A stretch of DNA of 35,279 bases, from positions 1 through 35,279 of IMG/VR virus record IMGVR_UViG_3300029567_000036; one strand, 5' to 3'. Made by a program: the position numbers and the translations under genes. The notes beneath the pieces were generated by a model. That model did no database searches. It had not been told where the DNA came from and saw only the letters and a list, made by a program, of their open reading frames with translations. This DNA comes from a virus. Positions 1 through 32,623 of the stretch are shown piece by piece. Position 1 is the stretch's first letter; each line of letters opens with the position of its first letter.

Positions 1-99
1 TGGAGCGGCGAGACGGTAGAAATACCCAAGTCTTACCTGCACGGCCGCAGCCGGGACGACTTCTTTGTGCTCTCTGTTAAAGGTGACAGTATGTACCCC
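1..99. repeat. Terminal direct repeat, copy A (identical to 35181..35279)
   Basis: Read directly: tggagcggcgagacgg...aggtgacagtatgtacccc occurs at both ends and is in frame with the repressor gene. This is most simply an assembly overlap of a circular or circularly permuted genome. Confidence 0.95.
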
Positions 100-1661: not shown

Positions 1662-1764
1662 ATCACAACAAAATAAAAAAAGCCCTACCCTGCGCCAACA
1701 GGATAGAGCCGATAAGCAGGATATGCAGTACATAACCCACCCAACATTGGATATTGTACCACAT

Positions 1765-1795
1765 CCCTGCCGATAAATCAAGCAGGGCATTTTTG
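1765..1795 (+). terminator. Rho-independent terminator candidate after the MNT-HEPN gene
   Basis: Stem ccctgc (1765..1770) pairs with gcaggg (1782..1787), followed by catttttg. Confidence 0.45.
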
Positions 1796-1831
1796 CGCCC
1801 TTTTTTAAGTACAATCTATGGGAGTGGTACA

Positions 1832-3265
1832 ATGAAATATGCAGCGGCATATATCCGCGTAAGTGACGACCGGCAAGACGAGTACAGCCCGGACAGCCAG
1901 CTTAAACTCATTCGTGAGTACGCCGGCAGAAACGGCTACTGCGTGCCGGATGAATATGTATTCTATGACGATGGTATCTCCGGGCGTAGCGTAAAAAAGC
2001 GCAAGGCGTTCAATGATATGATCGCCTTTGCAAAAAGCAAGGAGCACCCATTCCAGGCAATTCTTGTATGGAAATTCAGCCGGTTTGCTCGGAACCAAGA
2101 AGAAAGCATCGTATATAAGTCCATGCTGCGGCGCATCGGCGTGTCGGTGATCTCCATATCCGAGACCATAGACGACTCGCCCTTTGCCCCGCTGATTGAA
2201 CGCATTATAGAATTCATGGACGAGTATTACAGCACACGCCTATCCCAGGAAGTGACTCGGGGCATGACGGAAAAGGCAAGCCGTGGCGAAGCCATGAGCG
2301 CCGGTGCCTTTGGCTATGACCTCCAAAACAAGGTATTCACACCCAACGAGGACGCACCCACCGTGCGGTACATCTTTAATGCTTTTCTGTCCGGCAAAGG
2401 CTACCGCAAGATTGCTATGGAGCTGAACGCCATGGGCGTAAAAACCTACCGAGGCAACCCACCGGACAACCGCTTTGTGGAGTATATACTGATGAACCCG
2501 GTGTATGCAGGTAAAATCCGCTGGAGCACAGACGGCAGAGCCTCCAGAGACCGGTACAAAGGCGATAACAGCAAGGTTATGTATGTGGACGGCAAGCACC
2601 AGCCGATCATAGATCAAGACACATTCGATCAAGTACAGGAGAAGATCATGGAACAGAAAAGACGGTATGGCAAATGGCAGCGCAAGGAGCAGCCTGTCAC
2701 ATTCATGCTGAAAGGACTTTTGCGCTGCGACACCTGCGGTGCCACGCTGACCTATATTGCCGCCAGGGATCCCGCCGTTCAATGCCACAACTACGCCCGG
2801 GGCAAGTGCAAGGTGTCCCACTACCTATCCATACGAAAGGCCAACGCTGCGGTGATTGCTGCCATAGAAAAATCTCTGAAGACCCTGGAATTCAATGTGC
2901 TTCCAAAGGAGCAGCTGCAAAATGAAGTGGTAGACTACTCGCTACTCATTCGCAAGGAAGAAGAAAAGATCAAGCGGGCCAGTGATGCCTACGATGCCGG
3001 GTATGACACACTGGAGGAATACGGCCGCAAAAAGCGAGCATTTCAAAACAAGATTGAAGCGCTCAAAGCCGAGCAGGTCAAGGTCGAGAAGTCACAGAGC
3101 GGCGAAATTCCGCCCCAGTTCGTCCAGCAAGCCAGTTTTGTGCTCAATTTGATAAAGTCTCCGGATACAGCGGAAAGCGTCAAGAACGAAGCCCTGCGCT
3201 CCATTGTAGATCACATCACATTCAAAAAGCCGGACAACACACTGGAGATATTCTACTATATTTGA
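1832..3265 (+). CDS. Large serine recombinase (phage integrase)
   Basis: MKYAAAYIRVSDDRQ (catalytic Ser) with a resolvase-like N-terminus, a recombinase domain, a Cys-rich zinc ribbon (CDTCGATL...CHNYARGKC) and a C-terminal coiled coil. ATG 1832 has RBS GGAG at 1821; the track's start at 1754 is an upstream extension. Confidence 0.9.
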   Translation: MKYAAAYIRVSDDRQDEYSPDSQLKLIREYAGRNGYCVPDEYVFYDDGISGRSVKKRKAFNDMIAFAKSKEHPFQAILVWKFSRFARNQEESIVYKSMLRRIGVSVISISETIDDSPFAPLIERIIEFMDEYYSTRLSQEVTRGMTEKASRGEAMSAGAFGYDLQNKVFTPNEDAPTVRYIFNAFLSGKGYRKIAMELNAMGVKTYRGNPPDNRFVEYILMNPVYAGKIRWSTDGRASRDRYKGDNSKVMYVDGKHQPIIDQDTFDQVQEKIMEQKRRYGKWQRKEQPVTFMLKGLLRCDTCGATLTYIAARDPAVQCHNYARGKCKVSHYLSIRKANAAVIAAIEKSLKTLEFNVLPKEQLQNEVVDYSLLIRKEEEKIKRASDAYDAGYDTLEEYGRKKRAFQNKIEALKAEQVKVEKSQSGEIPPQFVQQASFVLNLIKSPDTAESVKNEALRSIVDHITFKKPDNTLEIFYYI

Positions 3266-3356
3266 TGGATTTTTAGCCGCATTTTCCGCCACGAATTGAA
3301 AAATAAGTGCGATTTTTGGCTTAACGCCGTCATTGATTGTCCATATTTTTACTCTG

Positions 3357-3396
3357 TATCTAAATGCAATACAGGCCTCTTTATTGCATTTAGATA
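3357..3396. promoter_or_regulatory. Perfect 15-bp inverted repeat with a 10-bp spacer; candidate attP core
   Basis: tatctaaatgcaata (3357..3371), spacer caggcctctt, then tattgcatttagata (3382..3396). It lies in the noncoding gap 3' of the integrase. No flanking U-tract, so it does not look like a classic terminator. Confidence 0.4.
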
Positions 3397-3410
3397 TAAT
3401 TAGTATAGAT

Positions 3411-3446
3411 AAAGGCCGAACAGTCTTGTAAACTGCCCGGCCTTTT
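3411..3446. terminator. Hairpin between the convergent integrase and 54-aa ORF (terminator-like; better U-tract on the plus strand)
   Basis: aaaggccg (3411..3418) pairs with cggccttt (3438..3445), followed by tctc. Confidence 0.45.
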
Positions 3447-3447
3447 C

Positions 3448-3612
3448 TCACATCAGCATTGTCGATATTGGAATTATGCGGATAATGTCACCATTTTGGG
3501 CTTTAATGCCAACAGAAAGTTGTTTGTAACGCAGTCCATCATCCACTAAAACAGCTTCGATGATCACATAGTCCGCAGTTTCAACCAAATCTTTGGTATC
3601 TTCCACAATCAT
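3448..3612 (-). CDS. Hypothetical 54-aa protein (below the ORF-track cutoff); moron
   Basis: Hand translation gives MIVEDTKDLVETADYVIIEAVLVDDGLRYKQLSVGIKAQNGDIIRIIPISTMLM. A perfect RBS AGGAGG lies 8 nt upstream of ATG 3612. The ORF has its own promoter and is flanked by hairpins. Confidence 0.6.
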   Translation of the reverse strand: MIVEDTKDLVETADYVIIEAVLVDDGLRYKQLSVGIKAQNGDIIRIIPISTMLM

Positions 3613-3635
3613 TTTTCATTCCTCCTTTGTTTTTC

Positions 3636-3665
3636 GTTATACTACAACGAGACAATGATTGTCAA
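3636..3665 (-). promoter_or_regulatory. Near-consensus sigma70 promoter for the 54-aa ORF
   Basis: On the minus strand, TTGACA (plus 3660..3665), an 18-nt spacer, then TATAAC (plus 3636..3641). The -35 overlaps the palindrome gacaat-g-attgtc (3651..3663). Confidence 0.5.
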
Positions 3666-3696
3666 TACCTTTCACTAATATTAAGTAAAAAAAGCA

Positions 3697-3732
3697 TATA
3701 TGAAAAAGCCCATCGGATAACCGGTGGGCTTT
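3697..3732 (-). terminator. Rho-independent terminator after the endolysin gene
   Basis: On the minus strand, aaagcccaccgg, loop ttat, ccgatgggcttt, followed by ttcatatatgcttttttt. Confidence 0.7.
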
Positions 3733-3737
3733 CTGTT

Positions 3738-4655
3738 TCACTTAATAAATTTATGATTGTCTGCGCATTCCCAGATACACAGCCAGCCGGAGGGGCAGCG
3801 TGCCCACAGGTTGCCGGTGGACAGCAAACGAATATCCGTCAGGGTAACGGCGGTACCTTTCTTCAGATATGCGTCTGCTTTAGGATTAGACGCGGTAGCG
3901 TGGGCCTTGCCGTTCTCCGTCAATTTTCCCACGGTTTTTCGCCCACTGGCAGCGCCTGCGCCCTTGTAGATTCCCCGCACAGCTGTCAAATGATATGTGC
4001 CGGGTTTTACGGTGGGTGCCGTGGGCGCAGACTTGCGGTAATGTATATCCTGTGTGGAATACGCCAGGCGCACATCGCGCTTTGGGGTAAACAACCACAG
4101 GGAAAGCACATCGCCTTTCAAGTCAGCCGGGCGAACATACACCTCTCTGCCGTTTTTCACCCGCGTGTATTTGCGGCGTGCGGCAGTCAAAGTGAACTTG
4201 CCGTCATACCAATACGGGTCCAAAATAATTAAATTGCCGTTTTTGTCGATGCCTGCGGCCAGCACATAGTGCCCGCTGTTGGAAAAGAGCATTTTGCCTC
4301 CGCCGCTTACATTGATAATCGCCTTATAGCCCTGTTTCAGATGTGCCACCAGCCGGTCCATATCTGTGGTGATGGCGTAGTCCAGACCGTATTTTTCTTT
4401 CATATACCGGGCCACCACGGCCATATCCGTGCCTTCCGCCGCCCGGGCACCCATACCCAAGCAGCGATGGGTCCACTGCCGGGTATTGAACACTCGAGTG
4501 GTGGAATTGCGCAGCGCCATTAAGGAAGCACACACCCCACAACCGCTGGTATAAACGCAGCCGGAGGTGCCGTACCGATAAGGGTGGGCCTTACTGGGGT
4601 ACGGTATGCCCTTGCAGGCAGTGGTCGTCTGCCGGCAATAATAAAGTGCAGACAT
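3738..4655 (-). CDS. Endolysin: papain-like (C39-like) cysteine peptidase with a C-terminal SH3b-like wall-binding domain
   Basis: SGCGVCASLMA (candidate catalytic Cys) and GHYVLAAG...ILDPY (His/Asp). The C-terminus GTYHLTAVRGIY...GNLWARCPSGWLCIW is SH3b-like. The gene sits directly after the holin with a TGATG overlap. Confidence 0.65.
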   Translation of the reverse strand: MSALYYCRQTTTACKGIPYPSKAHPYRYGTSGCVYTSGCGVCASLMALRNSTTRVFNTRQWTHRCLGMGARAAEGTDMAVVARYMKEKYGLDYAITTDMDRLVAHLKQGYKAIINVSGGGKMLFSNSGHYVLAAGIDKNGNLIILDPYWYDGKFTLTAARRKYTRVKNGREVYVRPADLKGDVLSLWLFTPKRDVRLAYSTQDIHYRKSAPTAPTVKPGTYHLTAVRGIYKGAGAASGRKTVGKLTENGKAHATASNPKADAYLKKGTAVTLTDIRLLSTGNLWARCPSGWLCIWECADNHKFIK

Positions 4656-4942
4656 CAGTCACCCTCCTGTTCCAGGGTCTCCGCCACGCTCTCGTCCTCT
4701 GTGGCGCCCTCTTGTTGCAACACCCGCAGCACCTCATCTGCCTGGCGGGCGCAGCAGGTAAAGCTGTTATTCTTCCACCAGGCAGCCATGGAAGCCGCTA
4801 CTGCCACCACCGTTGACACGGCGGTGTAGACTTCATCGTCAGAAAAGGGCAAGGGGTTCTTGCCAAAGGCATTGAGCAATACATTCAGCAGAGATACCGC
4901 CAACACGGCGGTTCTTGCGATGGTTCCTGCGGTTACTTTCAT
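4655..4942 (-). CDS. Holin
   Basis: 95 aa with two TM segments, the motif AWWKNNSFT common in Firmicutes phage holins, and an acidic C-terminal tail. RBS AGGAGG is present and the gene precedes the endolysin. Confidence 0.75.
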   Translation of the reverse strand: MKVTAGTIARTAVLAVSLLNVLLNAFGKNPLPFSDDEVYTAVSTVVAVAASMAAWWKNNSFTCCARQADEVLRVLQQEGATEDESVAETLEQEGD

Positions 4943-5296: not shown

Positions 5297-5471
5297 CGGT
5301 CTCACCCCCTTGCAGGGCGTTAATCTCCGCACGGTACGCAGCCCGCTGCCGGCGGATCGGCGCATATTCATCTTCGGACAGCGCACCGTCCGTGTACTTC
5401 AGACAGAGGTAATCCGTCTCCGCCAGCTCGGACTTCAAAAACGCAATGCGGCTTTCTGTCTCCACATTCAT
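5289..5471 (-). CDS. Hypothetical 60-aa protein downstream of the tail fibre
   Basis: ORF in the late-gene orientation whose start overlaps the fibre stop (ATGA-type coupling). Confidence 0.5.
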
Positions 5472-7204
5472 TTTGCCACCCCCAATATTTCAACTTGCGT
5501 GCCTGCGCCAATTGTTCGTCCATTGGTTGGGAAACCTAACGACTTAATCGCACCGTGAGCCTCCACATCCTTGAATATGTTGAAATTAACCTTGTTGCTA
5601 AGCCATATACAGCCTTTTTCCATGACATCAGCTGGGTTGAAGCCACTTGACTTATCTGATTTGTTTTGCATTACACGCACCATGTCAGCAGTCAATTCAA
5701 CCTCTGCAACAACGAAGCTTCCCTTATCTTTTGCAACATCGAAACGAAACGCATTGGGTATGTAAGTCTCAGATGTGTACGAATTCAAATATACAGTTTG
5801 GTCTCCGGCACTACTATTGGTAGTAGTTCCAACGCTAACCATGCGCAACTTAATTTTTCTGCACGGCTTAGACAAAATCCAGTTTTGCTTGTCCGTTGTA
5901 TCGGCGTCAAATGTCTTGGAAAACACAGGCTCCCAGGTCTCAGCAGAACCGGTTTTATCCGCAGTCAGCAGGGTGACCGTCCCGCTGCCGTCTGTCGCTC
6001 TGCGTAAGACGGCCAGGCCAAAATCAGATTGTGTGACTGTGGCACACTCCACGCCATCTTCTTCAAAGAAAGACACCAGCGCCCCACTGCGCAGGACTAA
6101 GGCATGATCGCCGCTTTTGGCATCGTCAGCGTGCAATGTAATGGTGCCATGTGTGTCATAATCCACATTCAGCACATAGGGGCAGAACTCAGAGATGTTC
6201 CACCATTCGTGTAAGGTGACCGCATCGCCTGACGCTTGTGCCAGAGTGCCCACCCAGCTGGTAAGTTTGGCTTGCAACTCATCACTTAACAGGTTCTCTG
6301 TGACCGTTTTTAGAGCCAGCCGCATGCCGGTTATTGTACGCGGCTTAATATGCTTGCCCTCCACAGACAGGGACTCGATCTTATCGCCGGTAACGGCACC
6401 GTCCGCCAGCTTGTTCGTAGTCACAGAGCTATCCGGGATCTCCACCTTGGCGGCAATGTCGGTTTTGTCCGTGTCCGTCAGCACATAGTCCTTGCCATCA
6501 GCGCCTGCAGGACCAGGATCACCTTTTGGTCCTTGTTCGCCCTGGGGGCCTTGCTCACCTTGTGGGCCTTGCGGGCCCTCTGCGCCCGGCTCCCCTTGGG
6601 AACCCTGTGGGCCCACTGCACCATCTTTTCCCGGTTCGCCCTGCGGTCCTCGCTCTCCATCTTTACCAGGAGCGCCCTGGGGACCCGTGTCACCCTTTGG
6701 GCCTTTAATGTTCACCGGTTCCGGGTTGTCCTTCCCGCCGTCATTGGTCCAGCTGATCTCGCCCGCTGCGGACACGCTGGGCGTATAAGTGGTGCCATTC
6801 ACACCCTTACCAATATCCTTGAGCAGTGCCTGCACCTTGGCGTAATAAGACTCCAACTCCGTTGGATCCGGTGCGTCCGTCTCCACAGCTGCCGGGTCAT
6901 AAGAACCAGGGCGCACATAAAACACGCACGGCTCCGGGCTTATACGCTGCACCAACTGCTCGCCATCCACGGCATAGCCGTAAACGCCCAGGCGGCACAT
7001 TCCCTCTTGCAGCGGCGGGGCGAAGCATTGTCCATCCACCACAGTGGCAAACTGGCCGTTCATGCACACCCGCACGACCAGATCGGCGTATGCCGGGTCC
7101 AGCTCTACCACACAGCGAATCTGATTGACATTCTCAGCTGTCACCGGGTCTTTGTTTTGTAAGATCACCGCCTGCTGGGTGACCTTAATATTTAATGTCT
7201 GCAT
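5468..7204 (-). CDS. Tail fibre / baseplate-associated protein with a collagen-like region
   Basis: RBS AGGAGG. 24 uninterrupted G-X-Y triplets (aa 168..239). The C-terminal part is visibly more AT-rich. Confidence 0.75.
6488..6703 (-). repeat. Collagen-like G-X-Y coding repeat (24 triplets)
   Basis: [72 protein letters not shown]. Confidence 0.9.
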
Positions 7205-7566: not shown

Positions 7567-7572
7567 GGCCTC

Positions 7573-8262
7573 CTATATGCATAACAGACGGAAGGTTTCT
7601 CTCCCCTTGGGTGTTACCAATGTTTGAGTGCCTGCCCATTTTGTTTTATCATTATAGGATTCTTTGATTTCAAACAATCCTGCATTCTTGTCCTCATACG
7701 GCATTAAGCGCCCGCGTTTATCACGGTATAAATATTTTTTGTCTAACAGGAATGCAATAAAGGTCTTAGGACCGATTCCCAGTTGCTTTGCGGTTTCCCG
7801 AAAATTCGTAAGCAAATTACGACTTACCAATTCATCAAAATATTCTGCCTTTGGTTGCATTGTTTGTACCGCCACCGTAAGTTTTGAATTCTCCTGCATA
7901 GCCGTTCTTAAATTCTGCTCCGCCATACGCAGCGCCCGGGACATTACCATTTCAGGCGTATTCCAAGCATTTTCCAGCTCGATAAAATACAAGCGTGCCT
8001 GTTTACCTCTATCATTGCGCTGGAGCATACAGAGCTCCTTAGCCATTTCAATGGTCAACTGCGCATCATTTCCCGGCCTACCGCGCTCGCCGGTATTTTC
8101 GCACAAAAATGTGCGAAAATCATTGCCCTCCACAAATCCATATTCGCACATTCTTGGAAACCAGTTGCGAAATGAGCTTTTCACTTCCAAGAATTTATGC
8201 AATTCTCTTGCCGACACCGTTGGCCTATCGCCATCGTAATTCACTTTGATTAGCTCGTTCAT
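7573..8262 (-). CDS. Phage antirepressor (AntA/AntB-like N-terminus plus KilAC/ANT-like C-terminus)
   Basis: MNELIKVNYDGDRPTVSARELHKFLEVKSSFRNWFPRMCEYGFVEGNDF... is typical of antirepressor N-domains. The C-terminal part contains AEYFDELV...LTNFRETAKQLGIGPKTFIAFL. ATG 8262 has RBS AAGGAG; the track's start at 8382 is an extension. Confidence 0.75.
   Translation of the reverse strand: MNELIKVNYDGDRPTVSARELHKFLEVKSSFRNWFPRMCEYGFVEGNDFRTFLCENTGERGRPGNDAQLTIEMAKELCMLQRNDRGKQARLYFIELENAWNTPEMVMSRALRMAEQNLRTAMQENSKLTVAVQTMQPKAEYFDELVSRNLLTNFRETAKQLGIGPKTFIAFLLDKKYLYRDKRGRLMPYEDKNAGLFEIKESYNDKTKWAGTQTLVTPKGRETFRLLCI
8095..8120. promoter_or_regulatory. 26-bp palindrome P1 (11-bp arms, aaaa centre) inside the ant coding sequence
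   Basis: attttcgcaca-aaaa-tgtgcgaaaat, a perfect dyad, encoding NDFRTFLCEN on the minus strand. Confidence 0.8.
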
Positions 8263-8426
8263 AAACAAAAACTCCTTACAAAATAATCTTGCAAGAGGCC
8301 CTCGTATTTGGTATAATAAATCTATCAGTGGAGAACCTCTGCTGCTGTTTAGGGATTTGCTTGTGCTTGGTCGTGTAAGCAAATCTCTTTTTTCTTTTCA
8401 AAAAACGCCACATAATGCCGTTTCCT

Positions 8427-8452
8427 ATTTTCGCCCAAAAATGGGCGAAAAT
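8427..8452. promoter_or_regulatory. 26-bp palindrome P2, sibling of P1 with a compensatory change
   Basis: attttcgccca-aaaa-tgggcgaaaat. It differs from P1 only at the two symmetric positions 9 and 18 (A/T to C/G). It lies in the gap between the small HTH gene and ant. Confidence 0.8.
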
Positions 8453-8458
8453 ACCGAT

Positions 8459-8638
8459 TCACATTTTTTGATCATCCAGTGCTGTAATTGCGTCCATAAC
8501 TTTTTGCGTTTCTTCTGCCGAAAAATCATAACGCAGTTTTTTAGAAAAAGTGCAATCGCTCATGCCCAGATAATCCGCGACTTGCCACAGTCGCAAACCA
8601 GAACGAATAATTGTACTTTTGATTTCTGACCCCTTCAT
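8459..8638 (-). CDS. Small HTH DNA-binding protein (59 aa), first gene of the ant operon (Arc/Cro-like position)
   Basis: MKGSEIKSTIIRSGLRLWQVADYLGMSDCTFSKKLR contains a helix-turn-helix. RBS AGGAGG lies 7 nt before ATG 8638. The track's start at 8671 would lie upstream of the predicted transcription start. Confidence 0.65.
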   Translation of the reverse strand: MKGSEIKSTIIRSGLRLWQVADYLGMSDCTFSKKLRYDFSAEETQKVMDAITALDDQKM

Positions 8639-8669
8639 TTTCGCACCTCCTTTCGCATTTGATGTCATC

Positions 8670-8698
8670 ATAATATCATTTTCGCAGTATTATGTCAA
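8670..8698 (-). promoter_or_regulatory. Near-consensus promoter of the ant operon
   Basis: On the minus strand, TTGACA (plus 8693..8698), a 17-nt spacer, then TATTAT (plus 8670..8675). The spacer contains the half-site attttcgcag (8678..8687). Confidence 0.6.
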
Positions 8699-8733
8699 CA
8701 ACATCAGCAAAATATTTTTTTGTCGTTTTATTG

Positions 8734-8762
8734 TTGACATATTCCCTCTTATGTGCTATTTT
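8734..8762 (+). promoter_or_regulatory. Divergent promoter for the XRE regulator
   Basis: TTGACA at 8734..8739, a 17-nt spacer ending in TGc, then TATTTT at 8757..8762. Its -35 block ttgttgacat is the exact reverse complement of atgtcaacaa (8692..8701) in the opposing promoter. Confidence 0.55.
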
Positions 8763-8801
8763 TAATTTAGACACAAAAACAATTATATTGAGGTGTTGAA
8801 A

Positions 8802-9344
8802 ATGACGAATATTAACTACAAGGAAGTTGGCAATAGATTAAAACGACTGATTGCAGAAAAAAATATGAACCAAATTGAGTTTGCAAAGCTCTGTAATGTG
8901 AGCGAAGCTACTTTGCGATTGCATATTCGCGGTGAAATAAAGAAAGGGATCAACTGTGATTGCTTATATGCATATAGCCGGGAACTCAATGTTTCAATGG
9001 AGTATCTACTTACAGGCGTTGAAACAAAGAAGCCCATTGCAATAAAGTATGTAGACATTATCAATGCAATCAACCTCTTGATCGATGCATTTGGGACCGA
9101 AATTATCAGCCCATGCAGTGAGGAGTTTGCGGACTGTTTATACATTGCAGATGAGGCTATCCAAACCTACTTGGAAAAAATCAGGCTTAACGGACATATT
9201 CGCGAAGATCTTGAAAGAATCAACGAGGGTGAAACATACAACAAAATGCGTAGAGAGTGGGCAGGATTATCTTGCAACAGATATAGTCACACTACAAAGA
9301 AGATCATCCCCTACGATGACGATGACGACAACTTGCCCTTCTAA
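8802..9344 (+). CDS. XRE-family HTH regulator (180 aa) with an SSB-tip-like acidic C-terminus (Mnt-like position)
   Basis: The N-terminus is LKRLIAEKNMNQIEFAKLCNVSEATLRLHIRGE (HTH_XRE). RBS GAGGTG lies 6 nt before ATG 8802. The C-terminus is ...IIPYDDDDDNLPF. Confidence 0.75.
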   Translation: MTNINYKEVGNRLKRLIAEKNMNQIEFAKLCNVSEATLRLHIRGEIKKGINCDCLYAYSRELNVSMEYLLTGVETKKPIAIKYVDIINAINLLIDAFGTEIISPCSEEFADCLYIADEAIQTYLEKIRLNGHIREDLERINEGETYNKMRREWAGLSCNRYSHTTKKIIPYDDDDDNLPF

Positions 9345-9352
9345 GTCAAAAA

Positions 9353-9391
9353 GGCTTTCGTCTACAAACAGACGAGGGCCTTTTTGTTTTT
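9353..9391 (+). terminator. Rho-independent terminator after the XRE gene
   Basis: ggctttcgtct, loop acaaac, agacgagggcc (two G-U pairs), followed by tttttgttttt. Confidence 0.7.
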
Positions 9392-9392
9392 C

Positions 9393-9421
9393 TTGCAATC
9401 TGCGGGGAAGTGTGGTATGGT
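9393..9421 (+). promoter_or_regulatory. Promoter candidate for the Thr-rich membrane protein
   Basis: TTGCAA at 9393..9398, a 17-nt spacer with TGg, then TATGGT at 9416..9421. Confidence 0.4.
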
Positions 9422-9444
9422 GGGGAGTGAAAGGAGAGATGGAG

Positions 9445-9966
9445 ATGAAGTCTAAGGCCAAAGTGTGGATCCTTGTTGTGACCGTTGTAATGGCGGTGGG
9501 GGTCGGTATCGGTGTGTGGGTGCACTATGATCGAGTGCATGATCAGGAGACAGCCAGTCTGGTAGATCACGCTGTATCCAGTGCACTGGCTGGTGTTACT
9601 ACACAGCCCACAGAGACCACTACAGAACCGGCAGCCACAGAGGCGACCGCAACCACAACAACTACAAAGCCCACAACCACTAAGAAGAAAAAGAAGAAGC
9701 ATACTACCACGCAACCGCAAGTAGTGTATCGCACCGAAAGGAATGGCACAGTAGCCCCAGCCGCAATAAGAGAAACAACCGAATCAACGGTGCCGAAGCG
9801 TCCTGCTGACGCGCACTTTGATCCCATACCTTCTGACGATGGATATTACTGGGACACAGCTTCTTCTCGAGACGATCCGTTAGAAGAAATATATGTCGAT
9901 GAAAGCGGCAGGCATTTCTATTTCAAAAAGGGCGATAAATCCACTCCAAGAATATATATTGACTAA
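9445..9966 (+). CDS. Single-pass membrane-anchored protein with a Thr/Pro-rich linker and a KKKKKK run
   Basis: MKSKAKVWILVVTVVMAVGVGIGVWV is a signal-anchor. The linker is TTQPTETTTEPAATEATATTTTTKPTTTKKKKKKHTTT. RBS AAGGAG lies 8 nt upstream. The track's start at 9085 overlaps the XRE gene and is rejected. Confidence 0.6.
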   Translation: MKSKAKVWILVVTVVMAVGVGIGVWVHYDRVHDQETASLVDHAVSSALAGVTTQPTETTTEPAATEATATTTTTKPTTTKKKKKKHTTTQPQVVYRTERNGTVAPAAIRETTESTVPKRPADAHFDPIPSDDGYYWDTASSRDDPLEEIYVDESGRHFYFKKGDKSTPRIYID

Positions 9967-9973
9967 TAACTCT

Positions 9974-10006
9974 AAAGCGGCTGTTCCAGTGCGGAGCAGC
10001 CGCTTT
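9974..10006. terminator. Bidirectional terminator hairpin between convergent genes
   Basis: aaagcggctg (9974..9983) pairs with cagccgcttt (9997..10006). Confidence 0.6.
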
Positions 10007-10011
10007 GCTGT

Positions 10012-12558
10012 TTATTGCAATTTTGCTTTCAGCGCGTCCACTGCGGCTTGCAAAGCGTCCAGTTGCTTCTTTTGATCTTGGATCAACTTAAGCATTGCCG
10101 GTATCATGATACGATCTTGCCAGCTTTCAGGTCTCCCTTCACTGTCATAGATCACTGCGTTGGGGTAATGCTTGTCCAGATCCTCTGCAATAACGCCGAT
10201 CTGCGTCCCGCTGACCAATTCGTTGTCCTTGTATTCTGGCTTGTAATTGTACTGGCACACCTGTACATCGTAAAGACCGTTTGGATCCAGCACAGCGTCT
10301 TCTACCGGTTTGATATTCTCTTTGTATCGTTTTGATGAGTTTGCGGTTGTAATAACGCCGCTTGTGTTTACAACCAGTGGAATGGTTCCGCTTGAAGATT
10401 TAAAACTCAGTCTAATATCGTCTTGTACCGTCAGTTTGCCTCTGATTGTCGTGGCGTTATCAATCCATATACTCTTCCCGACAAGGTATAAAACATTATC
10501 GCCACCATTCGCACTAAGCACAAACCCGCCTTTTGATTCAATCGTATCACGGTACGCAGTGCTTCCGCTAAGCGTCCAACTCACTTTAGACAGTACAAAT
10601 CTGGTTTCAACCGAATCTTTCGATCCCGCTTGTATACACAAGTTGCCATTCTGCTGCATTCTTAAGCAAATATCTCCGCCTTCTAAATATGTTTTGGCTC
10701 CGTGCTCATACTGACCGTATCCAATTACAAGGCTGTTACCACCAGATGCAGCATTAATGATTTCATATCCGGCAAGATCATATATTTTTTTGTAGAATTG
10801 TACATCGGCATCAAATTTGGTTTTCCCTTCCACCGATAGGGCCCCGCTCACATCTACCGAACCATTGCATACCATATCGCCGCCCATCGTTACATACCAT
10901 GTACCAGTATATGAACCGTTGCTGTTCTTTTTTTGTGCAGAAAACACCCAAGAGCCTTTGGTAGTTGGCTTTTGAATGTATGCACGATAACTACCCAAAT
11001 CCGCATACAGTTCTCGGTCGGTGATGTTCCACCCGGCGATCGTGCCTTTATCCGCAAGGATCTCAATACCGGAGAGTCTACCGGCTGAAATGTCCGTAGC
11101 ATTCAGGTAATACTGGTTGGTTTTTTTGTTGTAGTACACCGCAAAGTCCTTAAATGGGCCTTGCAGTCCGGTGGTAGAAACAGCCATGCCGTTCTTATTC
11201 AGCAGCAGGCAGCGTCCTTTGGTCTTGCCCTCCGCTGCCGGGTACTCTCCGATATAAAGCGCGTCTGACACACCATCGCCGTCCCGGTCGATCAAAGCAG
11301 CGTAACCACCAACTGCGTTCGTGATAGAATCCGTGGCGTCCTGAATGCGCTGCGCCAACGGCGCTGTGACCTGCTGCATAGCCTTAGAGATCATGCGGGA
11401 AAGAATGCTTCCGGCAGAGCTGCCCTCCTGTTCTGAACGGGCATGGGCGGCCACATCCATAGTGACGGAGCCATCATAATCATACTCCACACCCATCAAG
11501 GGGATATGGTGATCGCCGGTATCGTCCCGGTAAGTGATCACATCAAAACTATCCAGCGCCGGATTGGCCGTGAGCAATGTCATACTTCCCGGTCGGTACT
11601 GTATGCCCAGGTCAAATACAGTCTCACCCTGGTCGCCATCATCTATGTAGATCATATCGGATACAGCGTTAAATACTTTTTCCGCTTGGGCCTGGGTGGT
11701 GATCAGCGGATTGTCGAAATACAGCACCTCGCTGTTGACCGACAGACTATCTGGTGCAAGAATATTCTTATTCCCATTGTTGCAACTGATCCCCAGGTAG
11801 GTTTTGTCCGTCTCTGCCAGAGAGACCTCTGTGACTGTGTCGTCTGTCACCGTGTATTCTGCCGTACCATCATATACCTGGGCGAAAGTATCTACTCGCA
11901 ACTTGCCCTCTCGGTCAAAGACGGCAGCACAGCCGCAGAACCCAGCCACATAACCGATGGCATCATTCACATTATAGGCAGTGACCTGCTGCTTGCCGTC
12001 CTCGTCTGTTTCCGTACCGCAGAGCAAAGAAACATCTACCGTGCCAAAGCCGGAGACCTTGCTCTCCACGCCGGGAGCCAACTCAAAGTTACCCTGGCGT
12101 GCCAGGTCTTTTAAGATTGCCAAAGGGGTCTGCTGACCGCTGATGGCGGCAGAATACGGCATAGAAAGATCATACATGTGGTCGTACATTTCCAAAGTGG
12201 TACATTCGCCGGACCGAGTGACCTTTTCCGGATAAAACACGCCCATTGGCACCCACTCCACTGCACCGTTGACCATACAGCCAAAGTACACCACGGTTTT
12301 CTGCCCGCGAAGCACGGCACCGGCGGGCACAGCCCACAAAACGCAGTTACACCCACAGGAGTAGGATTTTGCCAGCGCGTAATCATCATGGCTGATACTG
12401 CGGTCAATATTCAGCTCCATAATGTTATTTTGCTCATTTGGGCTTGTAGGATCCGTCTCATCGTTGTAGCCAAAAATGAAATTGCCACATTTAACCTTCA
12501 CATAGATCCGTTCACCGTTTTTGATGGCTTGGTTAAACGCTGTGCTTGTCTTGTACAT
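10012..12558 (-). CDS. Tal-like tail tip/fibre protein with a C-terminal Peptidase_S74 intramolecular chaperone domain
   Basis: The gene follows the tape measure and a small tail protein. The C-terminal 109 aa, NSSKRYKENIKP...GVIAEDL...IPAMLKLIQDQKKQLDALQ, match the self-cleaving chaperone domain of endosialidase/tail-spike proteins. ATG 12558 has RBS AAGGAG. Confidence 0.75.
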   Translation of the reverse strand: MYKTSTAFNQAIKNGERIYVKVKCGNFIFGYNDETDPTSPNEQNNIMELNIDRSISHDDYALAKSYSCGCNCVLWAVPAGAVLRGQKTVVYFGCMVNGAVEWVPMGVFYPEKVTRSGECTTLEMYDHMYDLSMPYSAAISGQQTPLAILKDLARQGNFELAPGVESKVSGFGTVDVSLLCGTETDEDGKQQVTAYNVNDAIGYVAGFCGCAAVFDREGKLRVDTFAQVYDGTAEYTVTDDTVTEVSLAETDKTYLGISCNNGNKNILAPDSLSVNSEVLYFDNPLITTQAQAEKVFNAVSDMIYIDDGDQGETVFDLGIQYRPGSMTLLTANPALDSFDVITYRDDTGDHHIPLMGVEYDYDGSVTMDVAAHARSEQEGSSAGSILSRMISKAMQQVTAPLAQRIQDATDSITNAVGGYAALIDRDGDGVSDALYIGEYPAAEGKTKGRCLLLNKNGMAVSTTGLQGPFKDFAVYYNKKTNQYYLNATDISAGRLSGIEILADKGTIAGWNITDRELYADLGSYRAYIQKPTTKGSWVFSAQKKNSNGSYTGTWYVTMGGDMVCNGSVDVSGALSVEGKTKFDADVQFYKKIYDLAGYEIINAASGGNSLVIGYGQYEHGAKTYLEGGDICLRMQQNGNLCIQAGSKDSVETRFVLSKVSWTLSGSTAYRDTIESKGGFVLSANGGDNVLYLVGKSIWIDNATTIRGKLTVQDDIRLSFKSSSGTIPLVVNTSGVITTANSSKRYKENIKPVEDAVLDPNGLYDVQVCQYNYKPEYKDNELVSGTQIGVIAEDLDKHYPNAVIYDSEGRPESWQDRIMIPAMLKLIQDQKKQLDALQAAVDALKAKLQ

Positions 12559-12569
12559 AAAATACTCCT

Positions 12570-12938
12570 TTAGCGCTCGATGGCGTCTACTTTGTAGTTG
12601 ATGAAATACCGGCAATTCCTGGCACCGGAATAGGCTGTCCAACTGGGCGTACCAAAGTAGCAGTTGAACGAAAACACCGTATTCCCGGAAGTATCCTCCA
12701 GTTTAATAGAATGCCAGGGCTTACCCGCATTGTTGATCACGCCGTTTAGCTTGTCCAATTCCGCCCGGGTCAAGGGCGGAAAGGACAACTGCCTTGTTTT
12801 TTTGACCTGAACGATACTGCCGTTCATATAAGCTGACTTGGAGCGGCCCGTGTTAGAGGACCACACCTTTTCATCTGAACAGGATATGGCATTGAATGAT
12901 GGGTTTGGCATTTTTGTGCCGTCAATATATAGTGGCAT
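12570..12938 (-). CDS. Small tail protein in the distal-tail position (function assigned by position only)
   Basis: Lies between the tape measure and the Tal-like gene. RBS AGGAGGG. Confidence 0.4.
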   Translation of the reverse strand: MPLYIDGTKMPNPSFNAISCSDEKVWSSNTGRSKSAYMNGSIVQVKKTRQLSFPPLTRAELDKLNGVINNAGKPWHSIKLEDTSGNTVFSFNCYFGTPSWTAYSGARNCRYFINYKVDAIER

Positions 12939-30028: not shown

Positions 30029-30763
30029 CTAAAACTTGATGTCTGTGTTGTTCATGGTGTCCCGCTTGATCTGCTCCAGGTCGTAAGACGGCGGGCTTTG
30101 CAGTGCTCCGCTGTTCTTCCTGTCCTCTGCGCCCCACTTCTGCAAAACAGAGAAGTGGTCGTAATAGGTCTTGTGTGTGTTGTGAATGTGGAAGGACAAG
30201 TTTTTGATCAGTCGCTGCCAGTCAAGTGGGAATTGCTTTTTCAGCTTCGCATATTCCTCATCGGTTAATCGCACATTCTTAAACTCGCCATATAATTTTG
30301 CAGGCGTGCACGCGCTCGCGCGCTCTCTCCCTTCTCTCATTCTTTCATTCTTGCATTCTTGTTTATAGAAAGCGCTTGTTATTTGATTGTTATCTGTTTG
30401 TTGTTTGTTTGTTATTTGATTGTTATCTGTTTGTTGCCTATCGTTTTCCAACCCTTGATATTTGGCGTAGTTACGCAGAATAATAACGGTATTTTTGTTT
30501 GTTACATTCTTGAAAATCTCGCCAGTTTTTTGAAGGTGTTTCAGCGCCGTTCTCACTTGCATATCTGACAGCCCGCTACCGCTTGCCAAAGCGCTGATGG
30601 AGGTTACCACGGAGCCGCTGCTCAGCGTTTGGCCTCGCCATTGCTGCGGCTCCCTGTTGACGATAAGCAATAAATGCAAGAACAGCTTGAATGTGGGTAC
30701 ATCGGTGTACCACTCCCAATCCAGCAGTTGCCGGTAGGCTTTCACCCAACCCTGATTGCTCAT
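30029..30763 (-). CDS. Phage replisome organizer / replication initiator (DnaD-like N-terminal winged helix)
   Basis: Contains GWVKAYRQLLDWEWYTDVPTFKLFLHLLL...LSDMQVRTALKHLQKTGEI, plus an internal tandem repeat. Confidence 0.65.
   Translation of the reverse strand: MSNQGWVKAYRQLLDWEWYTDVPTFKLFLHLLLIVNREPQQWRGQTLSSGSVVTSISALASGSGLSDMQVRTALKHLQKTGEIFKNVTNKNTVIILRNYAKYQGLENDRQQTDNNQITNKQQTDNNQITSAFYKQECKNERMREGRERASACTPAKLYGEFKNVRLTDEEYAKLKKQFPLDWQRLIKNLSFHIHNTHKTYYDHFSVLQKWGAEDRKNSGALQSPPSYDLEQIKRDTMNNTDIKF
30378..30436. repeat. Tandem iteron-like repeat (26-nt exact repeat, 33-bp period) inside the replication gene; candidate origin
   Basis: gttatttgattgttatctgtttgttg occurs at 30378..30403 and 30411..30436. 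It is flanked by three cattctt 8-mers (about 30338..30361) and an alternating CG block (30305..30325). Confidence 0.6.
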
Positions 30764-30772
30764 ATCTACTCC

Positions 30773-31183
30773 TTAAAACGGCAGGTCGTCGTCATCATCA
30801 ATGGGCTCAAACTCTGCGTCATCTGCCGGTGCGCTGCCTGTGGTCGCCTGTGCGCCACTCTCTGCCTTTGAGCCGCAGAAGGACACCTGGCTGGCCACCA
30901 GCTGCACGCTCTTGCGTTTCTCGCCGTTCTGGTCCGTATAGTTGTCTGTCTGCAAAGAACCCTCAACGGCGATCATAGAGCCTTTATGGAAGTATTTGCA
31001 CACAAATTCTGCCGTCTGCCGCCAGGCGGTGCAGTCAATAAAGTCCGTCTTGCGCTCCTCGCCGGCCCGCTGAAAGTTGCGGTCCACAGCTACCTGAAAA
31101 CGCACGACAGAAACGCCTGTGGGCGTGGCTCTCAGCTCCGGTTCGTAGGTCAGTCGACCCATAATTACAACGCTGTTAATCAT
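30773..31183 (-). CDS. ssb: Single-stranded DNA-binding protein
   Basis: OB-fold N-terminus (VVIMGRLTYEPELR...FIDCTAWRQTAE) and the C-terminal tip DDDDDLPF. Confidence 0.9.
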   Translation of the reverse strand: MINSVVIMGRLTYEPELRATPTGVSVVRFQVAVDRNFQRAGEERKTDFIDCTAWRQTAEFVCKYFHKGSMIAVEGSLQTDNYTDQNGEKRKSVQLVASQVSFCGSKAESGAQATTGSAPADDAEFEPIDDDDDLPF

Positions 31184-31464
31184 AGATAATTCCTCCCAAA
31201 AATAGATATAAAGTCCTTGTCCGGGTAGGCAGCTTCAAAAGCCTGCTGCCCAACCCGGTGTAAATAGTCCATCGTCTGCTTGCAGTGGTGTGCACCTCTC
31301 GGCGGCTCGTTGTGGCAATTATGGCACAGGAGCACCGTCAAGCCGTATTTCTCGCTTTTCCGTCTGTTATATGCCCCAAATACATGGTGTCGCTCCAGGG
31401 CCCGCACAGAGCCGCACAGGTAGCACTGCCGCTGCTCTTCCGGCTGAATAATGCTCTTCTTCAC
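31180..31464 (-). CDS. HNH-like zinc-binding nuclease-family protein
   Basis: Contains CYLCG...HHVFG...LCHNCH. GTG 31464 gives a GTGA overlap with the upstream stop and is preceded by GGGAGG. The track's start at 31482 is TTG. Confidence 0.45.
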   Translation of the reverse strand: MKKSIIQPEEQRQCYLCGSVRALERHHVFGAYNRRKSEKYGLTVLLCHNCHNEPPRGAHHCKQTMDYLHRVGQQAFEAAYPDKDFISIFGRNYL

Positions 31465-31982
31465 TGTTTCCGTTCCTCCCAAGCAGACATCAGCTGCGCA
31501 AGCTCCGCCGGCGGCATAGTCTCAATGCCCAGTGCTTTGCAGTCCTGCACCACAGCGTCTATCAGCCTGGCCATACGCTTCGTCCCGTAGCAACTGGTGC
31601 CGTAATAGAACCGCACCAGCGAGGTGCGCGGGTAGATTCCATCATCCACTTTCTCCGCTGTCCAGCCCAGGCCGTTTCTCCCCCATGATTTCGTCATGGC
31701 ATTCACGGCACTGTCCGGCAGTTGGTAGTCCACAGACTTGCCATACTGCCGCACATAGCCCTGGTAAATCTCGTCCTTGGTGATCTGCGGGTCGTTCTTG
31801 GCCAACTCCGCTTGAAGCTTGCCGATCAACGCCCACATGTAGGCGTTAGCATCCAGGCTCCGGCGTTTCGGCTTTGGCTTAATCTCCAGCACATAGTCCT
31901 TTTGCTCTGCCAGGGAGCCTATGAACGCCCCCACCTTGGCCATAGTGGGAACCAGGTCAGCTTTTTTGAATTCGATTTTCAT
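31461..31982 (-). CDS. NinB/Orf-like recombination protein
   Basis: RRSLDANAYMWALIGKL resembles the RSLDQN..LW motif of lambda NinB. Confidence 0.45.
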   Translation of the reverse strand: MKIEFKKADLVPTMAKVGAFIGSLAEQKDYVLEIKPKPKRRSLDANAYMWALIGKLQAELAKNDPQITKDEIYQGYVRQYGKSVDYQLPDSAVNAMTKSWGRNGLGWTAEKVDDGIYPRTSLVRFYYGTSCYGTKRMARLIDAVVQDCKALGIETMPPAELAQLMSAWEERKQ

Positions 31983-31983
31983 C

Positions 31984-32613
31984 TTATAGCCCCAGCTTCA
32001 TAAAGATTTTGTCCGCCTGCTGACGGCTCAGGTCCTCAATGCGGCTGACCTTGTAATAGGCCAGCGCCTTTTTCAGTCGCTCGTTTTCAGCGTTTTCCTT
32101 AAGGATTGCCACTTGGTCCGGGCTGATTTTTTCCGCTGCCTGCTGCCGTGCCTGTTCTTTCTTCGCGTCCTGGGGCTGCACCTGCTGGTACTTTGTCCGA
32201 TCAGCTGCCCAGTACACATCTGCACCGAACCCTAACATCTTGCAGCACACCGACAGAGCGTCCGTATAAGCCATCTTGTAGCACTCATCGGAGGTGTACA
32301 GGCCGCTACGCTCCTTAGCCACCAACGAGGAACCGCCAATACCCGGAATAGGGGCGCTCCATTCATCGTTGTACTTCACATAGAGCAGCAGTTGCACATA
32401 CACAGTCACCACGCCATCCGCACCCTGATCTTGCCATGTGCGGCTGACTTCCACCTTCCAACCGATACCACAAGGGCCAAACTGCTCCGTCAGTGCCTTG
32501 ATACGCCACATTGGGTTAATATCAGTCATGCCCTTTAAGCGGCCTGCGCTAATGTTCTTCTTGGCGCTGTCCGGAACCTTGCGCACCGCCTCATATATCT
32601 TCATGTTCTCCAT
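31984..32613 (-). CDS. Rad52/Sak-like single-strand annealing protein
   Basis: Contains DINPMWRIKALTEQFGPCGIGW. ATG 32613 lies 6 nt after GAGGTG. Confidence 0.5.
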   Translation of the reverse strand: MENMKIYEAVRKVPDSAKKNISAGRLKGMTDINPMWRIKALTEQFGPCGIGWKVEVSRTWQDQGADGVVTVYVQLLLYVKYNDEWSAPIPGIGGSSLVAKERSGLYTSDECYKMAYTDALSVCCKMLGFGADVYWAADRTKYQQVQPQDAKKEQARQQAAEKISPDQVAILKENAENERLKKALAYYKVSRIEDLSRQQADKIFMKLGL

Positions 32614-32623
32614 TCCATTCACC

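Follow-up and report, generated by a model that had tools for sequence, protein, structure and literature searches.

The repressor of a small antirepressor island in a temperate phage ends in a peptide, YDDDDDNLPF, that resembles the acidic docking tip of bacterial SSBs. This tail is probably a working regulatory device of an undescribed kind, since distant relatives that appear to control tiny mobile elements also keep it. Its most likely role, as read from the sequence, is mimicry of SSB-tip docking, which would couple repression to SSB-tip-binding proteins. Genome maintenance in bacteria has the SSB tip, DDDIPF in E. coli and DDDLPF in Firmicutes, as its central docking peptide, and to our knowledge this tip has been described on ssDNA-binding proteins but not on transcription factors. 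The first-pass annotation of this DNA had stated that no described regulator of this kind was known to it, and a full-text literature search found none. The window, meaning the whole stretch of 35,279 nucleotides that was analysed, is a complete circular temperate phage, and its features of interest are collected in Table 1.

Table 1. Features of the antirepressor island and of the SSB region in the window
Feature	Position	Strand	Basis
Antirepressor Ant, AntA N-terminal and KilAC domains; presumed target of repression	7573..8262	-	Pfam, PHROG
Small Cro/Arc-like gene, ~60-70 aa, first of the divergent operon	8459..8671	-	phrog_17740
Divergent promoter/operator region, predicted	8670..8762	.	Promoter scan, inverted repeat
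XRE-family repressor gene with SSB-tip-like C-terminus, 180 aa	8802..9344	+	ORF list, Pfam, PHROG
Cro/C1-type helix-turn-helix (HTH) DNA-binding domain, residues 10-73	8829..9020	+	Pfam, AF2, Foldseek
Family-specific folded C-terminal domain, residues 83-170	9048..9311	+	Alignment, AF2 model
Tail YDDDDDNLPF, residues 171-180: acidic run, then terminal L-P-F	9312..9341	+	Sequence, AF2, family conservation
Intrinsic-terminator-like hairpin and T-run, directly after the regulator stop	9347..9386	+	Terminator scan, 17-pair stem
Downstream gene, 173-aa predicted membrane protein with Thr/Lys-rich segment	9445..9966	+	Translation
Phage OB-fold SSB	30773..31183	-	PF00436 at 5e-33
NinB/Orf-family recombination mediator, candidate SSB-tip binder	31461..31982	-	phrog_72 2.4e-25, weak Pfam NinB match

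The tailed regulator and its C-terminal peptide

The regulator gene starts at an ATG at 8802, with a GAGGTG ribosome-binding site 8 nt earlier, and stops at a TAA (9342..9344). Its product is identical to the database protein P0074 (DAD76739.1), whose exact sequence is present on 572 contigs of metagenome assemblies, some of them longer than 800 kb. The first-pass assignment to the XRE type, in an island with an antirepressor, agrees with both Pfam and PHROG. The Pfam matches of the protein are HTH_26 (E=1.2e-5, above the cut-off), HTH_19 and HTH_3, with no other, and it falls in PHROG families of transcriptional repressors. The HTH domain is modelled by AF2 with pLDDT >90, and its Foldseek matches are the DNA-binding domains of P22 c2, SinR, 434 Cro and ImmR. 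The domain that follows consists of three helices and a beta-hairpin in the AF2 model, and the family alignment reveals in it a conserved helix of the ITPxDIxxAINxLIxAYG type. A structure search of the PDB returned no match beyond the HTH, and in BFVD this domain had weak matches only, apart from the protein's own entry. Pfam finds no S24 match in the regulator, which thus lacks the peptidase of the autocleavable repressors of the LexA/CI type. Membership of the SSB family (PF00436) was ruled out, as Pfam detects the HTH only and the AF2 model is all-helical with one hairpin and has no OB fold.

The protein ends ...KKIIPYDDDDDNLPF, and the stretch 9312..9344, where the first-pass annotation had placed an SSB-tip mimic, corresponds to residues Y171-F180 plus the stop codon of the ORF 8802..9344(+). 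At the level of sequence the resemblance is borne out, with the extreme C-terminal position, the acidic run and the L-P-F all present. The TAA comes directly after DDDDDNLPF, leaving a terminal Phe with a free carboxylate; five Asp occupy positions -5 to -9 and an Asn position -4; and the last 10 residues, which come after a confidently folded domain, have a mean pLDDT of 57 and no secondary structure in the AF2 model, as is expected of a flexibly presented peptide. The phage's own SSB carries a tip of the same kind, ending ...EFEPIDDDDDLPF (IDDDDDLPF), with DDDDDLPF encoded at 30776..30799. Essentially the same peptide had been claimed for the two proteins, which needs a small correction: they are similar but not identical, the regulator's Asp run being separated from LPF by an Asn. 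At -4, where the window tail carries this Asn, SSBs usually carry Asp. The main difference from an SSB C-terminus (SSB-Ct) lies in the carrier, which here is a double-strand-DNA-binding HTH repressor and not an ssDNA-binding protein, and the binding of SSB partners is in this case a prediction. A recent DNA copy of the 3′ end of the SSB gene was ruled out as the origin of the tail, because the codons of the two differ (gat gac gat gac gac aac ttg ccc ttc in the regulator, gat gat gac gac gac ctg ccg ttt in the SSB); there is no flanking similarity either.

The antirepressor island

The island lies between the tail-fibre genes 5471..7204 and 10012..12642 and is AT-rich, with a GC content of 0.36-0.45 versus ~0.52. 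It is set apart from the main repressor of the phage, which spans the window junction and shows the AAG...GDSM motifs typical of S24, LexA-like proteins, as identified by eye. Two divergent promoters are predicted from consensus matches, P(-) from 8698 to 8670 (TTGACA-17-TATTAT) and P(+) from 8734 to 8762 (TTGACA-17-TATTTT), and both -35 boxes are within the inverted repeat TATGTCAACAA / TTGTTGACATA. Judged by these consensus matches, the region combines what is expected around the repressor of a mobile element, namely divergent near-consensus promoters and a palindromic candidate operator. The antirepressor is matched by PF08346 (3.6e-24), PF03374 (2e-24) and phrog_63 (8e-52), whereas the product of 9445..9966 has no Pfam or PHROG match. 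This last gene has its own terminator at 9973..10007, found by the terminator scan, and is possibly an exclusion-type gene expressed from the prophage.

The closest known arrangement is the immI region of phage P22, an ant moron with mnt, arc-ant and sieA in the late operon (PMC2629481). In both cases an independently expressed island in the late/tail region holds a maintenance repressor divergent from a small repressor and ant, with a membrane-protein gene alongside and the main CI-type repressor elsewhere in the genome. However, Mnt and Arc are ribbon-helix-helix proteins and Mnt has no SSB-like tail, whereas both window regulators are of the HTH type. The window island is an analogue of P22 immI and not a homologue, because its regulator is an HTH protein and its small gene matches phrog_17740. 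In terms of gene content it is an ant moron, since ant is found within the late operon with a divergent repressor and a small co-transcribed repressor gene, their control being predicted. A satellite embedded in one of its helper's late genes (HE-PICI; PMC10111431) was also considered and set aside: the island has no integrase or replication gene, nor does an integrase adjoin the regulator, and an ant moron describes it better.

Conservation of the tail in the family

A homologue search retrieved 72 proteins, of which ~50 share only the HTH and 22 share the C-terminal domain. An [LIVM]PF terminus is found in 15 of the 72, all of them (15/15) with the family C-terminal domain, and in none of the ~50 HTH-only matches. 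The 15 distinct tailed members are 25-40% identical. In their tails F(-1) and P(-2) never vary and position -3 is L in 14 and I in one. D/E fills 48% of positions -4 to -9 versus 16% over the remaining protein sequence (Fisher p=1e-11), and K/R fills 3% versus 12.5%. Some members have a weak acidic run (KFVLPF, SDGLPF, DEKLPF), and the distance from the domain to the tip ranges in the alignment from a few residues to ~45. At closer range, all 13 members listed for the cluster at 90% identity, 11 of which are full length, retain DDDDDNLPF despite several other variable positions. The common architecture is thus that of an HTH domain and a helical C-terminal domain, joined through a linker of variable length to an acidic [LI]PF-COOH tip. 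Retrieval driven by the tail itself was ruled out as a source of this pattern, given that the alignment of most tailed matches stops near query residue 157. In the background, among 794 ORFs from the first 25 loci and the window, a terminal [LIVM]PF is confined to this family, SSBs and a single further ORF; on the strength of these counts and of the family conservation, a chance resemblance was rejected. The first-pass annotation had made conservation of the tail among homologues one test of its reading, and the tail is indeed kept across a divergent family.

On the other hand, 7 of the 22 domain-sharing relatives have no terminal tip. Among those without a tail are P0003-P0005, the closest phage-borne relatives, which reside in an equivalent phage Ant module, and in P0013 a DVDDIPF is followed by 9 further residues. 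Because some members, P0003-P0005 included, do without it, the tail is, on these comparisons, dispensable for basic repressor function. The tailless relatives would also fit a tail with no function at all, either a chance resemblance or the remnant of an ancient fusion to the 3′ end of an SSB. This explanation is strongly disfavoured and borders on the implausible, given a tail that is kept in 15 such divergent members and absent from the HTH-only relatives, the significance of its acidic enrichment, and codons unlike those of the SSB gene.

No member of the family was found in GenBank phages or PLSDB plasmids, a viral scan with a 6-sequence alignment gave HTH-level matches only, and a profile search through a word-indexed protein database added almost no members. 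The metagenome scan yielded one true locus (L017), and a candidate from the genome-collection scan with the 6-sequence alignment (L010) proved to be a false positive, a WADIDNCIF inside a large surface protein.

The conservation pattern also bears on the idea that the tail is a proteolysis tag, in which ClpXP would read the C-terminal LPF, probably via an adaptor, and the repressor would be short-lived or degraded on a signal, setting the switch. The resemblance to SSB would then arise because in some Firmicutes SSB bears this degron too. The switches of mobile elements commonly have unstable repressors, and LPF forms the invariant core of the family tails, the acidic part being variable. Moreover, GFP-LPF and SsbA/SsbB are lost in a clpX-dependent manner in S. 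mutans UA159, where LPF alone suffices (PMC5143411), and the terminal tripeptide and its extreme C-terminal position are identical to those found here. However, recognition of LPF is strain-dependent within S. mutans, was lacking in E. coli and in S. gordonii, and could not be reproduced in vitro (PMC5143411). The motif is known from some S. mutans strains, in vivo only, and needs no acidic residues, whereas the family tails are strongly acid-enriched, and a bare LPF leaves the wealth of acidic and the scarcity of basic residues at -4 to -9 unaccounted for. Since a bare LPF suffices for the degron (PMC5143411), the acidic enrichment favours a mimic of the SSB tip, and a proteolysis tag is an unlikely explanation, although it is the strongest competitor of the docking model.

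An acidic tail on a flexible linker of variable length could also act inside its own protein chain or on the partner chain in a dimer, as a DNA mimic that folds onto the basic surface of the HTH and tunes its affinity for the operator. The SSB tip itself folds back on the OB fold, which lends this idea a precedent. Nevertheless, an internal contact does not account for a P-F kept so strictly at the extreme terminus, and a domain-to-tip distance that varies so widely suits a tether better than a fixed contact, so that we consider an intramolecular role improbable.

Distant homologues in mini-elements

The distant tailed genes lie directly upstream of a tyrosine integrase gene and are divergent from genes for a Cro-like protein, an excisionase-like HTH protein and a DnaD-like replisome organizer. 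These elements measure 4-5 kb, are either flanked by direct repeats or assembled into a circle, and show no S24 or ImmA-type induction device. Adjacency to the integrase, with divergence from the excision/replication operon, holds for the distant homologues L003, L017, L022 and L023, not for the window copy. A small gene of 57-68 aa occupies the same place at L003, L004, L006, L008, L018, L022 and L023, and the small Cro/Arc-like family co-occurs with the tailed repressor in the distant elements; phrog_17740 matches both the small ORF of the window and that of L017. Judging from gene order, the distant homologues would be the repressors of mini-elements built on an integrase and a replisome organizer.

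This layout resembles that of the Stl repressors of SaPIs and PICIs, HTH proteins encoded next to the integrase gene and divergent from the excision/replication operon. What relieves repression by Stl is the binding of conserved phage proteins rather than cleavage mediated by RecA. In the case of SaPI2, four unrelated phage recombinases lift repression by Stl, and Sak without its 3′ region escapes (PMC5779228); the C-terminal domain of Sak works with the SSB acidic tail (PMC11846896), and the SaPI2 inducers are recombinases that work with that tail. However, Stl has no detectable relation in sequence or fold to the window regulator beyond the HTH, and Stl2 reportedly mimics the quaternary architecture of its targets (rings, filaments), not an SSB-tip peptide (PMC5779228, PMC11846896). 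The mini-elements are also much smaller than SaPIs and are candidate satellites.

The pairing of the tailed protein with a DnaD-like replisome organizer in these elements raises the alternative that the tail is a recruitment handle and not a sensor: the DNA-bound regulator would bring host SSB partners such as PriA, primosome components or a helicase to the control or origin region, aiding replication or recombination of the element. In Firmicutes the helicase is loaded by the PriA-DnaD pathway, and almost all other phage carriers of the tip are DNA-bound replication or recombination proteins. Yet the gene sits in the position of a repressor, by the integrase, divergent and with its own promoter, and not in the replication operon; the window module is predicted to control Ant, far from the replication genes; and no origin-like repeats were identified. 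Recruitment is accordingly a rather improbable function for the tail.

Candidate partners and a model of derepression

In the window phage the gene of the NinB/Orf-like mediator adjoins that of the SSB, and a DnaD-like protein is encoded at 30029..30763. The Orf homologue YbcN requires the SSB C-tail for SSB binding, and Redbeta also binds the SSB tip (PMC6393309). For a neighbouring ORF (31984..32622), an identity as a Rad52-type annealase was not established, as PHROG labels it 'exonuclease' only and it has no significant BLASTP match to a Rad52-like protein and no PDB sequence match. In IMG/VR the same tip occurs on gp32-like, DUF3127, DUF669, Rad52-like, DUF968 and SpoVG-like proteins, which suggests that it is a portable module on unrelated folds. 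These non-OB carriers end in the same DDDLPF-COOH module and are mostly ssDNA-binding or recombination proteins, unlike the HTH regulator; no HTH transcription regulator was present among 120 sampled IMG/VR tip carriers.

With these partners in mind, we tentatively favour a model in which the gene product acts as maintenance repressor in a second immunity module, with a tip that mimics the SSB docking peptide, senses SSB-tip binders and responds by derepression. The features of the sequence, their conservation in the family, the exposed and disordered tip and a gene order typical of repressors are observed; docking in SSB-tip pockets, the partner and the derepression are what we infer here. 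In the lysogen, the repressor would sit on the palindromic operator that overlaps the two divergent promoters, keeping the operon of the Cro/Arc-like gene and Ant off. As SSB-tip-binding proteins grow abundant, they would capture the tail, the tip inserting its terminal Phe and carboxylate into the pockets used for SSB-tip docking. Candidate captors include the NinB/Orf-like mediator, an annealase and other phage recombination or replication proteins or, alternatively, host SSB partners freed or induced in replication stress. The captured repressor would be titrated off the operator or destabilised on it, with the release of Ant in the window phage and of the excision/replication operon in the mini-elements. 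Against such a sensor, host SSB partners are always present, and therefore a simple bait would meet a constant background.

A broader proposal, possible but more doubtful, is that master repressors of mobile elements use the SSB-tip mimic as a generic bait, so that any phage or host protein that docks on SSB, be it an annealase, an Orf-like mediator or a helicase loader, would lift repression. If so, mini-elements and ant morons could sense phage replication through an interaction that the phage cannot easily mutate away.

Conclusions

A conserved SSB tip on the repressors of mini-elements and prophage modules would offer a simple answer to how non-cleavable repressors are induced, and it would extend to peptide mimicry the logic of pirating conserved phage functions known from SaPI Stl. 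Transcription factors would, in addition, join the SSB interactome. As the protein is common in metagenome assemblies, the finding is likely to be relevant to abundant prophages. If the broader bait proposal is true, the tail would represent a new input channel for the lysis-lysogeny decision and for satellite induction, tying the control of transcription to the SSB interactome.

An HTH regulator with an SSB-like tip

The XRE-family regulator of 180 aa encoded in the window, which matches Cro/C1-type HTH models at residues 10-73 and is probably translated from the ATG at 8802 (with GAGGTG in front), ends in ...TTKKIIPYDDDDDNLPF. The SSB of the same phage (PF00436, E=5e-33) ends in ...EFEPIDDDDDLPF; the regulator tip has one inserted Asn, and the codons of the two tips differ, which rules out that the tail was recently copied from the end of the SSB gene. 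The coordinates, the HTH match, the tail and the phage SSB end thus all agree with the first-pass annotation, which had proposed an HTH regulator with an SSB-like tip at 9312-9344. The protein is identical to the database protein P0074 (GenBank DAD76739.1, Myoviridae sp. ctdxI18), carried by 572 contigs (the largest of 845 kb), and its sole annotation is "helix-turn-helix domain protein".

The single-chain AlphaFold2 model obtained with the family alignment (mean pLDDT 87.5) shows an HTH domain (residues 1-71), a short linker, a C-terminal domain made of helices 83-97, 118-139 and 143-154 plus a hairpin (159-170), and a last decapeptide that is unstructured (pLDDT 57). Foldseek searches against the PDB retrieved P22 c2, SinR, 434 Cro and ImmR through the HTH domain only; for the C-terminal domain, nothing informative was retrieved. 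Across the family, the spacing between domain and tip ranges from a few residues up to about 45, resembling the variable disordered linker of SSB. There is a slim chance that the tail acts intramolecularly, as an autoinhibitor of the HTH.

Conservation of the tip

Among 1.84 billion representative proteins, searched exhaustively with HMMER, there were 68 matches. About twenty of them, at 25-40% identity, have the complete architecture, in which the HTH is followed by a C-terminal domain that contains the conserved helix ITPxDIxxAINxLIxAYG. The majority of these relatives carry an acidic-[LI]PF tip at their C-terminal end (NLDDDDDLPF, ILDDDLPF, DDNEELPF, NSDDLPF, FNDDLPF, LDGDLPF, YEDELPF, ENESLPF, VENEIPF, EPDSLPF, FSELPF, SDGLPF, KFVLPF, and IDEKLPF in locus L017), an ending found in 0 of the roughly 50 HTH-only matches. 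The alignments of most tailed matches end near query residue 157, so the tail was not the cause of their retrieval. Conservation of the tail among homologues, on which the proposal of the first-pass annotation depended, holds for the 15 distinct tails, where F(-1) and P(-2) are invariant, position -3 is L in 14 and I in one, and positions -4 to -9 are enriched in Asp/Glu (48% vs 16% elsewhere; Fisher p=1e-11) and poorer in Lys/Arg (3% vs 12.5% elsewhere). DDDDDNLPF is also kept by 13/13 listed members (11 full length) of the 90%-identity cluster, despite differences at several positions. On the other hand, seven domain-sharing relatives lack a terminal tip (P0003-P0005, P0008, P0020, P0053 and P0013), and the tip is therefore a selected yet dispensable feature; a tail devoid of function is very improbable. 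The family is small and comes from metagenome assemblies only, mostly as short contigs, with no members found in GenBank phages or PLSDB plasmids.

Some individual sequences deserve mention. P0013 (216 aa) has DVDDIPF followed by nine further residues, which would bury the terminal carboxylate, and P0008 (211 aa) ends in VSDDLVWE; both may be natural loss-of-tip variants, with the tip internal or degraded. P0002 (208 aa; Logan contig) is identical to the regulator through residue 126 and then follows a different reading frame, as a frameshifted copy without domain end and tail that is either a sequencing error or a pseudogene.

The invariant LPF core of the family would also agree with a ClpXP degron, given that in S. 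mutans UA159 a C-terminal LPF alone makes GFP, SsbA and SsbB clpX-dependent substrates (PMC5143411). Such recognition is confined to some S. mutans strains; E. coli and S. gordonii lack it, and in vitro assays did not reproduce it (PMC5143411). A degron, which we consider unlikely, does not account for the acidic enrichment.

Other carriers of the tip

Canonical OB-fold SSBs are only 39 of the 120 IMG/VR ORFs ending in DDDLPF (loci L026-L145, from a DDDLPF-TAA scan), the other carriers being gp32-like (19), DUF3127 (11), DUF669 (7), Rad52-like (L140), DUF968 (L087) and SpoVG-like (L086) proteins, together with about 20 clusters without Pfam match; no HTH regulator was found among the 120. Phages shuffle the SSB tip widely as a module, and this census suggests that the tail could recruit host SSB partners to the bound DNA, a rather improbable role for the regulator. 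A further non-SSB ORF of 369 aa, with no assigned family, is found at L013 11992..13101(+) and has an SSB-tip-like end, ...ELSDDAGGDLPF. A full-text literature search found no described transcription regulator with an SSB tip, in keeping with the novelty claimed in the first annotation. XRE repressors, ant morons, Stl-type sensing and SSB-Ct are known parts, and what is new is their combination.

The phage and its ant island

The 99-bp exact terminal direct repeat indicates a circular assembly of 35,180 bp, and by gene content the window is a complete temperate phage, with integrase, holin and tail-fibre genes, structural genes on the minus strand and a replication/recombination block (Gp157, NinB/Orf-like mediator, HNH-like gene, SSB, DnaD-like helicase loader, RusA and methylase). 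The main repressor crosses the window junction and shows an HTH and, after it, the AAG...GDSM motifs that typify the S24 LexA/CI-type autocleavage domain, with a Cro-like gene opposite. The tailed regulator lies in a separate island of lower GC (0.36-0.45 vs about 0.52) between tail genes, where two near-consensus divergent promoters have both -35 boxes within an inverted repeat, TATGTCAACAA/TTGTTGACATA; promoters, operator and att sites were assigned by pattern matching.

Features of the window phage and its ant island
Feature	Position	Strand	Remarks
Terminal direct repeat	1..99 and 35181..35279		99 bp, exact
Serine integrase	1754..3265	+	Convergent with holin and putative lysin genes, as expected of an unintegrated circle
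AT-richer gap	3266..3737		Presumably attP
Holin and putative lysin genes	3738..4942	-	
Tail-fibre gene	5471..7204		Island flank
Island	about 7570..10010		
Ant	7573..8262	-	AntA + KilAC domains
Cro/Arc-like gene	8459..8671	-	Roughly 70 aa
Tailed XRE gene	8802..9344	+	Own terminator, 9347..9386
Last ten residues and stop codon	9312..9344	+	
Small membrane-protein gene	9445..9966	+	173 aa; own terminator, second of island
Tail gene	10012..12642		Island flank
SSB	30773..31183	-	
HNH-like gene	31180..31482	-	100 aa, Cys/His-rich; phrog_7566; weak HNH endonuclease families; between SSB and NinB-like genes
Cro-like gene	34489..34707	-	

The island follows the logic of P22 immunity I, or "ant moron", where the maintenance repressor gene mnt is divergent from arc-ant, with a superinfection-exclusion gene alongside, the whole unit being inserted in the late operon, adjoining the tailspike gene (PMC2629481). 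However, P22 Mnt and Arc are ribbon-helix-helix proteins, which makes the island an analogue and not a homologue. The membrane-protein gene takes the position of P22 sieA; its product, with no family match found, has a hydrophobic helix at the N-terminus and a low-complexity stretch rich in Thr and Lys, TTTTTKPTTTKKKKKKHTTT.

The same module is also present in other prophages. In one of them, P0006 (FSELPF end) accompanies a Bro-N/ANT gene upstream of terminase; the collection indexes P0006 in 86 blocks, with contigs reaching 555 kb, and the SSB of its prophage ends in DDDDDLPF. In another, the tailless P0005 likewise lies between tail-fibre genes. One variant of the P0006 prophage (L020) has a reverse transcriptase (RVT_1, 9840..11447(-)), a bAvd-like gene and DUF6273 genes beside the Ant module, a region that looks like a diversity-generating retroelement.

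Distant homologues in mini-elements

In loci L001, L003, L004, L006, L007, L017, L021, L022 and L023-L025, a tyrosine integrase gene follows the tailed gene on the same strand within about 15-20 nt. Where the upstream flank was recovered, the tailed gene is divergent from three or four genes, which encode a protein of 57-68 aa (assigned in L017 to phrog_17740, as is the small gene of the window), an excisionase-like HTH_17 protein, one or two small products, and a DnaD-like replisome organizer or replication initiator. L003 (1507..5564) and L023 (192..5176) are bounded by direct repeats (31 nt, 4.03 kb apart, and 22 nt, 4.96 kb apart, respectively), with the second copy right after the integrase, and the whole of L017 (JGI Ga0326513_10017301) assembled as a circle of 5,119 bp whose ends overlap by 127 bp. 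This arrangement, together with the bounded or circular loci, identifies the tailed family as the predicted master repressor of integrative, replicative mini-elements of 4-5 kb, whose layout resembles the int-stl / str-xis-rep region of SaPIs; L017, L003 and L023 may represent very small satellites or integrative plasmids of a new class. Neither an S24 domain nor an ImmA-type protease was found in the mini-elements, so another induction input is needed, for which the tail is the obvious candidate.

A proposed docking mimic on a repressor

The partners of SSB hold its tip by a hydrophobic pocket, which takes the terminal Phe, and a basic rim, which contacts the carboxylate and the Asp residues. 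The regulator tail is exposed and has every sequence feature required for such binding. Recombination proteins of phages are among the binders of the tip. Redbeta binds the nine-residue SSB-Ct peptide in an F177-dependent manner, and the Orf homologue YbcN requires the SSB C-tail (PMC6393309). Efficient annealing depends both on the C-terminal domain of Sak and on the last seven residues of the SSB of phage 80alpha (PMC11846896). Four unrelated recombinases (Sak, Sak4, Erf and Redbeta) derepress SaPI2 Stl, and in an Stl escape phage the 3' region of sak is lost (PMC5779228). In the window phage itself, a gene for a NinB/Orf-like protein lies two genes upstream of SSB, so a candidate partner for the tail exists.

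The best-supported reading, though still a tentative one, sees the tail as a docking mimic of the SSB tip, through which SSB-tip-binding proteins would act on the repressor; beyond the look of the tail and its placement, we infer every step. In its most likely form, the repressor tail would be captured, and repression lifted, once such proteins are produced, either by the phage itself following partial induction or by a phage that infects the cell. In the window phage, Ant would thereby be set free and drive the prophage, or prophages co-resident with it, into lytic growth; in the mini-elements, the same event would lead to excision and replication.
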